The translations under genes and the position numbers were made by a program. This document shows positions 46,731 to 60,819 of a DNA stretch of 64,000 bases, piece after piece. Within the stretch, counting starts at the first letter, position 1, and each line of letters begins with the position of its first letter. This stretch comes from Eledone cirrhosa. Its lineage: Eukaryota. The stretch is from contig OZ024743.1 in the NCBI GenBank assembly GCA_964016885.1, positions 102,052,001 to 102,116,000 of the forward strand, read 5' to 3'. The notes under the pieces were generated by a model that made no database searches, was not told the DNA's origin, and saw only the letters and a program-made list of their open reading frames with translations.

Positions 46731-46812
46731 ACACACGTACAAATCCAGAGAGATCTATTTCGCCAATAAGTTGTTGACAGAAATGAAATAACCCCGGTTC
46801 GTCAGCGTGTGT
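46731..46812 (-). ncRNA. Hammerhead ribozyme (type I), intact core
   Basis: Mirror of 47268-47349. Confidence 0.75.
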
Positions 46813-50253: not shown

Positions 50254-51780
<1,527 letters not shown>

Positions 51781-55925: not shown

Positions 55926-55956
55926 ACATGGAACTCCTTTAACCATCTTTTGATCT

Positions 55957-57193
<1,237 letters not shown>

Positions 57194-57937: not shown

Positions 57938-58468
57938 ACACACAGACACACACACACATATATATATATATATATGTGTGTGTGTCTATGTGTTAGATTT
58001 TGTATGCTTTCACCCTAATTTAAGATGTTGCCAAACATATCATATTGAACAAAGGGTATATCTGACAAGAATATTATTAAATATAAATGATTCTATATTA
58101 AGCTTATTTATATTATATTGCTAGAGGGAAAAACCTTTATCCATTGATATTTAAATTTTCCGAATAATGAAATACTTATAACACATGTGTAATATTTATA
58201 GAAATTTTTAATGAAATTCGAATTATAATTTCGTAGCGACCTAAAAGCATCGGTTTCATCCATCCCCCTCTCGTTTCTCCATTCATTTCTGAGTTATATT
58301 CGTGATATTGTTTTCGTTTTTCTCAATTCGACTATTTATGGACATCTAAAAATGAAATTCCTCTGGGGCGTCTTGGTCTATTAGAATATGGAGACGGATC
58401 ACAATAACTGATTTAGAAATGGAATATGTAAAAAAGTATTTCTTACCTATTATATATATATATATATA

Positions 58469-59150
58469 CATTTTGAAGACCATACGCTATTGTTTTAAAG
58501 TAGCGACATTGTCGCTTACTTAAATTTTCGGCAGACAGGGGGAGATAAGTTGACAGCGCTGTTTCGTACTAATTGGTATTTGTCAAAACTCAGTACTCTC
58601 CCCGTCTGCCGAAAATTATGTGTGTTGGATTCTTATAGAATTCCTGTAACAATAAGGAACCGATTTTACAAAGCGGTCGCCGGCCCATCAAAAATTGAAA
58701 ATTAGAATGTCGCTACTTTAAAACGATAGCGTATGGTCTTCAAAATGCTTTTAATTAAGCATACAGTGTATTGCAAAATACACTATATATACATTCATAT
58801 ATATATATCGCTATTTCAGAGCACCAATTCTAATTTTCAATTTCTGCTGGGCCGGCGACCGCTCTGTAAAATCAGTTCCTCATTGTTACTGGAATTCTAT
58901 AAGAATCTGACACACATAATTTTCGGCAGACGGGGAGAGTACTGAGTTTTGACAAGTACCAATTAGTATGAAACGGCGGTGTCAACGTACCTCCCCCTGT
59001 CTGCCGAAAATTTAAGTAAGCGACAATGTCGCTACTTTAAAACAGTAGCGTATGGTCTTCAAAATGCTTTTAATTAAGGATAAAGTGTATTGCAAAATAC
59101 ACTATATATACATTCATATATATATCGCTATTTCAGAGCACCAATTCTAA
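58469..59150. mobile_element. Retrozyme-like element: 319-bp unit in ~1.4 tandem copies (58709-59150) plus inverted copy (58469-58708), within (TA)n
   Basis: GTCGCTACTTTAAAAC at 58709 and 59028; mirrored homology upstream. Confidence 0.85.
58920..59010 (+). ncRNA. Hammerhead ribozyme, U3-A8 variant with extended bulged stem I (mirror 58525-58615, minus)
   Basis: gtt-TTGACAA-GTAC-CAATTA-GTAY-GAAA-[CAGCGCTG in the mirror copy]-TC-aac inside TTTTCGGCAGAC/GTCTGCCGAAAA. Confidence 0.75.
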
Positions 59151-59154
59151 TATA

Positions 59155-59236
<82 letters not shown>

Positions 59237-59572
59237 TATGTAAAAGGTAAACAGAAATAACAACACAATCGGTACAGTATATGGAAGGTATATATTAGGT
59301 TAACGTTTGATATAGCAGGAAGAAGGTCTTAACGTTTCGGACGCTAGTTTCTTCATCAGAAGAAAGAATGAGAAATAAAATAGATTGATGGGACGGGCGG
59401 GATGAAATTGAAAAAAGTGTCTTTTCATAAAAATAACAGGTCTATTCATCTTGACGAAGGACTAGCGTCCGAAACATTAAGACCCTCTTCCTGCTATATC
59501 AAGCGCTAACCTAATATATACCTTCCATATACTGTACGGATTGTATTGTTATTCCTGTTTACCTTTTACATA
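59237..59572. repeat. Inverted repeat (~125-bp arms) with mirrored minimal hammerhead motifs, flanked by (TA)n
   Basis: Consensus tctt-CTGATGA-A-GGAC-TAGC-GTCC-GAAA-CG-TT-aaga. Confidence 0.85.
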
Positions 59573-59872
59573 CATATATATATATATATCAACGCTTACG
59601 CGGACCTCTCAAAATTTCGTTGGATTTTATGATTGGACTCTCACCTCGAAACTGGATTACAACCCGGAGTACACCTGAACTTCCTCCAGGAAATCTTTCG
59701 TATCTTTGAAATTTTCTTTGCTTCTTATATATATATGTATATATATGATGCGAGACAAAGCACAACATACACACAAACCCTCTATCTCATAAGAACTGTG
59801 AAACCGGTAAAGTAAATAAATATTCTTAAAAGCCTCCAGTTGCATTTTCAATTTCTTTTCCTCATATATATA

Positions 59873-60819
59873 ACTAGCAGTAAAGCCCGGCGTTGCTCGG
59901 GGTCGCTCAGTAGCTGTGTTAAAGTTACAATGTTAAGTTTCTTTCTTGGCTTAAAAACTGTAGTGTCTACTGTGCAGACTTGCATGTGGTGTTTTTGATT
60001 AATATTCCCTCAACCAACAATATGCCTTATGAAGTTAAGAAAACATAACGATAACCCGAATGTTATAACAAAAGAGGATGCTGGGGATAGAAACTGCACT
60101 GGTTATTTATTAACAAAGATCGAAAATGTAAACACTGCAACGCAGAGAAAAACATTAGCTTAACCAAATTATCAGTTATGTCTGTCTGCACGCCTATATC
60201 ACCTCTCTGCACGACTGTCTGTCTGCACGCCTATATCACCTCTCTGCACGACTGTCTGTCTGCACGCCTATATCACCTCGCTGCACGACTGTCTGTCTGC
60301 ACGCCTATATCACCTCTCTGCACGACTGTCTGTCTGCACGCGTATATCACCTCTCTGCACGACTGTCTGTCTGCACGACTGTCTGTCTGCACGCCTAACG
60401 ACGAAATATTTGCTTGTTTTACGTAGTCTTTAAATAGACTTGTTTTCAAGTAAAAATATTGTTTTAAAATGCTTTTAAATGGAAATGAAGCAAAACGGAA
60501 GCTTAGTGTTCGAACTGTTCGTGTATTGTGTTAATGTCATTTTAAACGCTGAGAAAGCCAGCGTAATTTTTTACGTAAGACGCTCAATGTAAACAGAACA
60601 AAGGGAAATAACTGATAACTTACGCTCAAAAATCGATACATTATATTCGATTTCGTCACATAGGGTGGGTCAATTTGAAATTTCTTTTTTCCGATGTCTT
60701 CGCTAGGGCTCAATGTACAAGTATAGCAATTTCGGTGCAATTCCGTGAGAGATTCTAAGAGGAGATGTGTGCCAAAAATCGATAGACAGACAGACAACCA
60801 CAGTTTTATATATATAGAT
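59873..60819 (+). mobile_element. Helentron/HINE-like non-autonomous element
   Basis: Starts ACTAGCAGTAAAGCCCGGCGTTGCTCGGGG; ends AGACAGACAGAC...TTTTATATATATAGAT. Confidence 0.65.
60181..60396. repeat. 37-bp minisatellite, 5 full copies plus partial
   Basis: TCTGTCTGCACGCCTATATCACCTCTCTGCACGACTG. Confidence 0.95.

Follow-up and report, generated by a model that had tools for sequence, protein, structure and literature searches.

The window, a 64,000-nt stretch of the Eledone cirrhosa genome (contig OZ024743.1), contains an insertion of ~680 bp at 58469-59151, with (TA)n runs on both sides. It has inverted arms of 240 nt (58469-58708 and 58827-59066) that are 94% complementary and differ at 15/240 positions, as well as a direct repeat with a spacing of 319 (58706-58806 versus 59025-59125). 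The first-pass annotation had described 1.4 tandem units plus an inverted copy in (TA)n; the repeat, the inverted arm and the (TA)n setting all hold, but the tandem part contains only one ribozyme. Because copies of the family have their 3’ ends either at the TA run or 26-31 nt further on, we reset the start of the unit to 58809, rather than 58706, and read 59126-59151 as a tail (Table 1). The repeat period (319) exceeds the length of the unit (317 nt) owing to 2 extra nt in the upstream TA run. The outer end of the inverted arm is short of the usual flush 3’ end by about 60 nt, probably lost after insertion. No ORF of at least 140 aa lies within or adjoins the element, and the combination that marks an autonomous Penelope-like element (PLE), a reverse transcriptase plus GIY-YIG between repeats, was not found there.

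Table 1 Parts of the insertion and of its two predicted hammerhead ribozymes (window positions).
Feature	Positions	Strand	Remarks
Inverted 5’-truncated arm	58469-58708	-	Unit positions about 19-258
5’-truncated partial unit (pseudo-LTR-like partial tandem)	58706-58808	+	3-nt overlap, head-to-head with the inverted arm
Full unit, 317 nt here	58809-59125	+	Ends in a short internal TA run, the flush 3’ end of the family
26-nt tail	59126-59151	+	Repeats the first bases of the unit, then (TA)n
Predicted hammerhead of the inverted arm	58523-58617	-	Core UUGACAA from 58586; stem III palindrome perfect; predicted cut after C17 at 58552
Predicted type I hammerhead and distal stem I helix	58918-59012	+	Five private substitutions
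GUAC strand of the stem I internal loop	58939-58942	+	Letters equal G5U6A7C8, S. mansoni internal loop 1
Proximal stem I, 5’ strand	58943-58948	+	Partner 58984-58989
Core positions 3-9, U3-A8 variant	58949-58955	+	
Stem II, 4 bp	58956-58969	+	Hexaloop CAAUUA 58960-58965; pair 10.1-11.1 is G-U here, G-C in the family
G12-A13-A14, stem III, C17	58970-58983	+	Stem III broken here, palindromic in the family; predicted cut after 58983

Each strand of the insertion carries one predicted hammerhead, and two ribozymes on the same strand are absent. Both copies keep all the core letters (positions 3-9, G12-A13-A14, A15.1-U16.1 and H17) in the U3-A8 form. The core TTGACAA, the 4-bp stem II with its CAATTA loop, the GTC site and the palindromic stem III, perfect in the inverted copy, are all present as first annotated. 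The two copies also carry different lesions, as proposed. Compared with 33 relatives, the + strand copy has private substitutions at 58969, 58975, 58979, 58987 and 58990, and the inverted copy has a single private lesion, G10.1 to A, which creates an A-C mismatch at 10.1-11.1. The stem I drawn in the same annotation (gtt/aac, a TGA bulge and GTAC/GTAC) did not survive this comparison. It depends on two substitutions private to the + copy: position 58987 is G here versus T in 32/33 relatives, and 58990 is C versus T in 33/33. We therefore rejected the GTAC/GTAC helix. The stem I of the family consists of UGAGUU/AACUUA and then a GUA(C/G) internal loop (GUAC/GUAG) that faces U1.7, a nucleotide present in 33/33 relatives and lost in the + copy of the window.

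The corrected parse is closer to the S. mansoni hammerhead than the GTAC/GTAC parse. Thus, of the Schistosoma-like architecture initially proposed, the loop letters stand and the detail of stem I does not. Likewise, the proposed 319-bp retrozyme candidate is borne out, by the covariation within the family and the tandem arrays of a sister family, as a predicted type I hammerhead in a non-coding unit of retrozyme size, but not as a source of monomers: with a single, damaged ribozyme on each strand, the locus should be unable to release a 319-nt monomer. It is an aged and probably inactive member of its family.

Folding predictions gave z-scores of -5.8 and -7.2 for the two ribozyme regions, with 0/200 shuffles as good, although most of this comes from the long distal helix. 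In all eight sequences tested, the hammerhead fold was predicted to be 0.7-6.7 kcal/mol less stable than an alternative rod, so that cleavage may rely on folding during transcription or as a dimer. The commonest U3-A8 variants have a self-complementary stem III, with a predicted self-duplex of -17 to -20 kcal/mol. An Rfam search of the whole window at the gathering score returned no hammerhead match, and a search of 58400-59700 with E values up to 10 returned no hammerhead and only hairpin-type models, mostly of miRNAs, far below their cut-offs; these searches test against a model library, not the fold.

Several other features of the window are ribozyme-like or repetitive. Directly after the (TA)n lies a second head-to-head element (59220-59589; arms 59220-59348 and 59461-59589, 93%). 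Its - strand has a minimal hammerhead-like motif from ~59359, and a damaged version lies near 59450 on the + strand. Homologues of this element adjoin family copies at three other loci (L014, L015 and L026), and the motif in L026 looks intact. Five further minimal PLE-type hammerhead-like motifs lie at 46805(-), 47275(+), 47710(-), 55864(+) and 56368(-), those at 46805 and 47275 forming an inverted pair. Similar minimal motifs recur in many loci, which suggests that the genome is rich in ribozyme-bearing PLE ends. The window also has two open frames, 50537-50984(+) and 53414-52838(-), which we take to be C-terminal GIY-YIG regions of different PLE families; both resemble a locus (L088) that matches Pfam GIY-YIG weakly. 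A local direct duplication of ~580-590 bp (55949-57071) includes the ribozyme-like region at 56368, and a 37-bp minisatellite with 5.4 copies and 98% matches occupies 60179-60377.

A DNA search of the 3.0-Gb genome gave 1,931 first-look candidates for the window unit, of which 40 were scored to yield 81 matches. The U3-A8 core joined to the stem II of the window had 73 exact genome matches (control 0), and the C3-G8 core in the identical stem II scaffold had none. U3-A8 is the state of the family, being present in 33/33 copies that were not chosen on the core. We rejected the idea that it arose by decay, given 0 C3-G8 against 73 U3-A8 exact matches and half-changed cores in only 2/132 copies. 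Core and stem II are intact in only 16/33 copies of the subfamily of the window, and an exact tandem pair of this subfamily occurs once in the genome, that is, it is not arrayed. Dimers do exist in the U3-A8 branch (L025, L118, L131, L140 and L163). Across the superfamily the unit is about 310-324 bp, non-coding and dispersed in many thousands of copies. At one locus (L158 876-1483; G000 C1 about 56,078,400-56,079,000) we observed tandem 163-bp units that lack the whole ribozyme region and keep both unit ends; if this array was inserted in the ribozyme-less form, the ribozyme would not be needed in cis for mobilisation.

We also reached a sister family with the canonical C3-G8 core, via a neighbour in locus L020. 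A 24-nt tail motif had 4,418 exact genome matches (control 0), which we sampled as 30 returned loci plus 40 further stretches at listed places on C1. Our collection comprised 197 distinct ribozyme-spanning segments, 135 of them parsed and 132 unique. Pair 3/8 was U-A in 82, C-G in 48 and another combination in 2 of these 132; in the 52 copies chosen on the tail motif the numbers were 27, 24 and 1. For covariation we aligned the window copy with 46 of the 52 tail-motif copies, omitting six with indels or high divergence. In this 47-sequence alignment 90.0% of cells pair, against 82.1 for shuffles, a test that is inflated by the kinship of the sequences, and 33-46% for slid partners. Two-sided changes occur in 16/28 pairs, among them the four pairs of stem II as well as pair 3-8 (U-A 27, C-G 19, other 1), the covariation of the last being a single event. 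Pairing amounts to 97% in stem III and to 74% in proximal stem I, whose two outermost pairs are open in 27/47 and 35/47 sequences. The first C and the last A of loop II and the U of the internal loop are each kept in at least 90% of the 47 sequences, and the S. mansoni form of loop II, CAAAUA, occurs in 11/132 copies. These patterns support the prediction of a type I hammerhead with a U3-A8 core, and the conserved letters suggest that an S. mansoni-like loop-loop contact could form in the family.

A tree of 100 units with the ribozyme removed grouped the 58 U3-A8 units as a single clade (99/86) among those with C3-G8, with a midpoint root and bootstrap values that had not fully settled. Read from this tree, U3-A8 arose once from C3-G8 sisters, along with a change from A-U to G-C at the base of stem II. 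Within the clade there are further variants of stems II and III that are still paired. A single switch followed by paired variants is the pattern that would be expected from selection for a working ribozyme.

The insertions themselves share a characteristic anatomy. Across 30 loci, 3’ ends fall at the internal TA run of the unit or 26-31 nt past this run, 5’ ends are variable, and an inverted partner is frequent. The larger set of 124 distinct insertions (loci up to L169) comprises 68 with a head-to-head arrangement and 56 with a single orientation at both ends; tail-to-tail insertions are absent. Where both ends of a head-to-head insertion are intact, 45/49 have one flush and one tailed end, as do 27/31 from loci not chosen on the tail motif. 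PLEs of the EN+ type are described as having partial tandems, an inverted 5’-truncated copy, a ~30-bp tail on one end and microsatellite targets (PMC8557442, PMC3846280). All these PLE hallmarks, namely the (TA)n target, 5’ truncation, partial tandem, inverted partner and one-sided tail, are present here; the first-pass annotation had not recognised the inverted arm, the tail and the target as such.

A young sister family, also absent from the first-pass annotation, is the more informative part and gives the clearest view of this anatomy. Its tail motif had 16,913 exact genome matches (control 0), and its unit is identical to the window unit at 207/321 aligned columns. One array (L170) contains 5.8 units of 310 bp with the canonical core, and the four whole tail-to-tail units compared there are identical. 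The 100 matches listed of the 16,913 correspond to 16 loci, all of which we examined: 13 are head-to-head, 2 single-armed and 1 meets a gap. In each of the 13 head-to-head loci one end is flush and the other carries a 23-26-nt tail. Units inside an arm are identical or have at most 3 differences, and both arms share the same unit in 8/8 loci with whole units in both arms. Between loci, only 4/78 pairs have identical units and 74/78 differ. The longer arm is tailed in 8/13 loci and flush in 5/13, with lengths that were read by hand and that may shift after insertion or in assembly; in L247, for instance, the arms are 2,370 and 464 nt. Junction overlaps are mostly 0-5 nt, three junctions have short inserts, and two loci, L238 and L247, have the same 16-nt overlap within the distal hairpin of the ribozyme. 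A target duplication of 15 nt is also clear in L247; most of the remaining flanks consist wholly or almost wholly of TA and are uninformative in this respect. In a further young array (L235 1772-2127) the junction is doubled, with an inversion, a short duplicated piece of tail and a second inversion, which suggests template jumps during joining. The sequencing contigs of one sample (three runs) contain both families and the young head-to-tail junction; they may come from the assembled sample and are uninformative on RNA, ends or circles, and contig matches to the window unit served only as a lead to more subfamilies.

We found no report of head-to-head retrozyme multimers in the literature covered, which took in subscription journals only slightly. 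Nor did this literature contain a description of the family, which could already have an entry as a satellite, SINE or PLE in repeat databases.

A search for an autonomous partner showed that GIY-YIG coding sequences are abundant, with 10,596 candidates in the genome, 150 of them scored and all 150 above the cut-off. No 3’-end homology with the unit was found in 30 GIY-YIG loci out of these candidates, nor in 9 loci at or adjoining PLE-type ORFs. Several copies have ORFs beside them that are presumably PLE-type, judged by motif, and Pfam detected GIY-YIG in 1/8 pieces of such neighbouring ORFs. Each of these has a distinct 3’ end, in some cases with a minimal ribozyme of its own, and lacks homology to the unit. 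We rejected them as partners and read them as neighbours that share the (TA)n target. On the 5’ side of the unit, no PLE ORF in sense was found in L001-L091 (the ORF in L086 abuts an inverted piece), and what follows the tail in 87 tail matches is unit sequence, TA repeat or a few unrelated flanks. In 13/30 GIY-YIG loci (within L175-L202) a minimal hammerhead lies ~400-670 nt past the match; its core is U3-A8 and its stem II is of the GCAU/AUGC type. These minimal PLE ribozymes resemble those of a U3-A8 retrozyme subfamily (L118, L146), whereas their flanks are without homology; the likeness could reflect convergence or template switching between PLE and retrozyme.

Previous work described non-LTR retrozymes as non-coding, AT-rich units of 150-450 bp with a type I hammerhead, occurring as dimers to multimers and lacking LTR, PBS and PPT; PLEs co-occur with them and were named a strong candidate mobiliser (Cervera and de la Pena 2020, PMC7229834). 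The superfamily described here is similar in its non-coding unit within 150-450 bp and its canonical type I hammerhead. It differs from metazoan non-LTR retrozymes as described in the U3-A8 core of one branch, the 3-4-bp palindromic stem III, the (TA)n target, the one-sided tail and the head-to-head arms. The word "inverted" is absent from the main text of PMC7229834, and the accessible part of PMC13282606 does not mention ribozymes. A recent preprint concluded that animal retrozymes are non-autonomous PLE sequences, from co-occurrence and pLTR homology and mostly in vertebrates (Li, Clavereau and Pollet, bioRxiv 10.64898/2026.07.22.740005), and reported there that only 1/9 predicted Xenopus retrozyme dimers cleaved. 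Our conclusion on the mobiliser is the same, but our evidence is insertion anatomy, with no pLTR homologue found in the loci compared. The preprint also uses a rule of two consecutive complete ribozymes; the window locus lacks such a pair, in contrast to the young arrays, which reach up to 10 whole units among the matches listed.

Compared with EN+ PLEs (Craig et al. 2021, PMC8557442; Arkhipova et al. 2013, PMC3846280), the elements agree in 5’ truncation, partial tandems, an inverted truncated partner, a ~30-bp tail on one end, a microsatellite target and a hammerhead near the 3’ end. Unlike EN+ PLEs as described there, they have no ORF, the whole element is one ~310-320-bp unit with an extended ribozyme, and both arms can be multimers. 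With the S. mansoni Sm-alpha hammerhead (PMC2632901) the ribozyme shares a stem I internal loop in which one strand reads GUAC and the other begins with U, and a hexaloop II that begins with C and ends with A. It departs from the published Sm-alpha in loop II (CAAUUA in the window, CAAAAA commonest in the family), in the U3-A8 core and in the 3’ loop strand (UCUC versus UCCA), and many relatives have GUAG. The U3-A8 core itself is already known, as is the link between retrozymes and PLEs. U3-A8 hammerheads were reported to be natural and active in vitro (Perreault et al. 2011, PMC3088659) and to occur in S. mansoni PLE ribozymes (Cervera and de la Pena 2014, PMC4209133), with about 1,300 S. 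mansoni PLE-type hits (PMC3088659 / PMC4209133). Relative to these published examples, the core here lies in an extended ribozyme and its single C3-G8 origin can be placed on a tree.

Taken together, the element is predicted to work like a non-LTR retrozyme and appears to insert like a non-autonomous PLE, and we consider this double class assignment very likely on the sequence evidence. The window insertion is an aged member of a non-coding, 315-320-bp repeat family with a predicted type I hammerhead of the U3-A8 branch, and was likely inserted by enzymes from an autonomous PLE that copied a small and probably circular RNA. We infer that the mobiliser would be the enzymes of PLEs. A scheme that could produce the observed arrays begins with transcription of a tandem array. 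The hammerheads would cut the transcript to unit length, probably aided by two palindromic stems III that pair with each other, and the monomer would be circularised. The GIY-YIG nuclease of a PLE would then make a staggered cut of both strands in (TA)n, and both target ends would prime reverse transcription on one RNA variant, one at the internal AU run (the flush end) and the other 25-31 nt further (the tailed end). Each cDNA would run for a variable number of rounds, and the two would be joined by short homology to give a head-to-head array. Such arrays would decay, or would begin short, leaving one or two units per arm as in the window. Two target-primed reverse transcriptions on one circle would be the simplest explanation for one variant per locus, unlimited arm length and two fixed priming points. 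The two-primer scheme resembles the twin priming of L1. We judge the chances of this circle-plus-two-primer mechanism to be about even, and those that the whole superfamily is a genome-wide record of PLE integration on a ribozyme-made circle, with both (TA)n cut ends priming ~25-31 nt apart over multiple rounds, to be a little short of that.

The same class of element could instead be copied from a long linear multimer of a master array, with no circle, the hammerhead trimming precursors and the arrays perhaps growing after insertion by unequal exchange. One homogeneous array would also predict identical arms, and local amplification after insertion has been proposed (bioRxiv 10.64898/2026.07.22.740005). 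However, units differ in 74 of the 78 pairs of loci and yet are uniform in both arms of each locus, so that many uniform masters would be needed. Furthermore, expansion alone leaves the fixed flush and tail ends unexplained, and circles are known for the retrozymes of coral, mussel and axolotl (PMC7229834). We thus regard a linear master as somewhat unlikely. The inverted arm might also come from fold-back self-priming of the first cDNA, or from an antisense template, rather than from a second target-primed event. This would account for the identical arms, and self-priming from palindromes at inverted junctions was argued, as a hypothesis, for Penelope in Adineta (PMC3846280). The common 16-nt overlap of L238 and L247 in the distal hairpin, and the overlaps of 0-5 nt at most other junctions, fit it. 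A fold-back copy cannot exceed its template, whereas either the tailed or the flush arm may be the longer one in the young loci, an argument that later collapse of arms could blur; we consider this origin of the arm unlikely.

A different reading is that the units are solo or truncated pLTRs of an unfound autonomous PLE and do not form a self-contained non-autonomous element. All the structural hallmarks are indeed those of PLE ends, Xenopus retrozymes are related to pLTRs (bioRxiv 10.64898/2026.07.22.740005), and the PLE loci that we compared are a small fraction of the total in the genome. Against this, no sense PLE ORF lies 5’ of the unit in L001-L091, the tail is followed in the 87 matches by unit sequence, by TA repeat or, in a few cases, by unrelated flanks, some arrays comprise as many as 10 whole units, and the ribozyme of the unit is extended and canonical where the PLE loci examined carry minimal ones. 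We find this reading improbable. Finally, the absence of an Rfam match and the rod as the lowest-energy predicted fold could point to a chance hammerhead-like motif in a hairpin repeat, or the arms to a fold-back artefact of assembly. But the core letters are near-invariant and the stems covary across subfamilies; the arms in the window differ from each other at 15 positions, and the ends of young arrays differ in a fixed way, with flanks that differ too. Chance or artefact is therefore scarcely credible.

Which enzymes move animal retrozymes is stated to be an open question, PLEs being candidates through co-occurrence and homology (PMC7229834; bioRxiv 10.64898/2026.07.22.740005), and for the origin of PLE tails and inverted partners an in vitro system was named as the next task (PMC8557442). 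Taken by itself, the window copy is a decayed representative of a known class; the interest is carried by the young head-to-head arrays and not by U3-A8. A retrozyme superfamily with every insertion hallmark of PLEs, and with a young branch in which the arms are multimers of one variant, narrows the mechanism, and the young family offers a short and abundant substrate. In addition, the superfamily provides a natural series of hammerhead variants in which the switch from C3-G8 to U3-A8 can be placed on a tree. If the circle model is true, it would account together for the PLE tail and inverted partner and for the tandem arrays seen in animal retrozymes, and the young family of ~17,000 units would provide an active and minimal substrate, 310 nt long, with which to reconstitute PLE retrotransposition.
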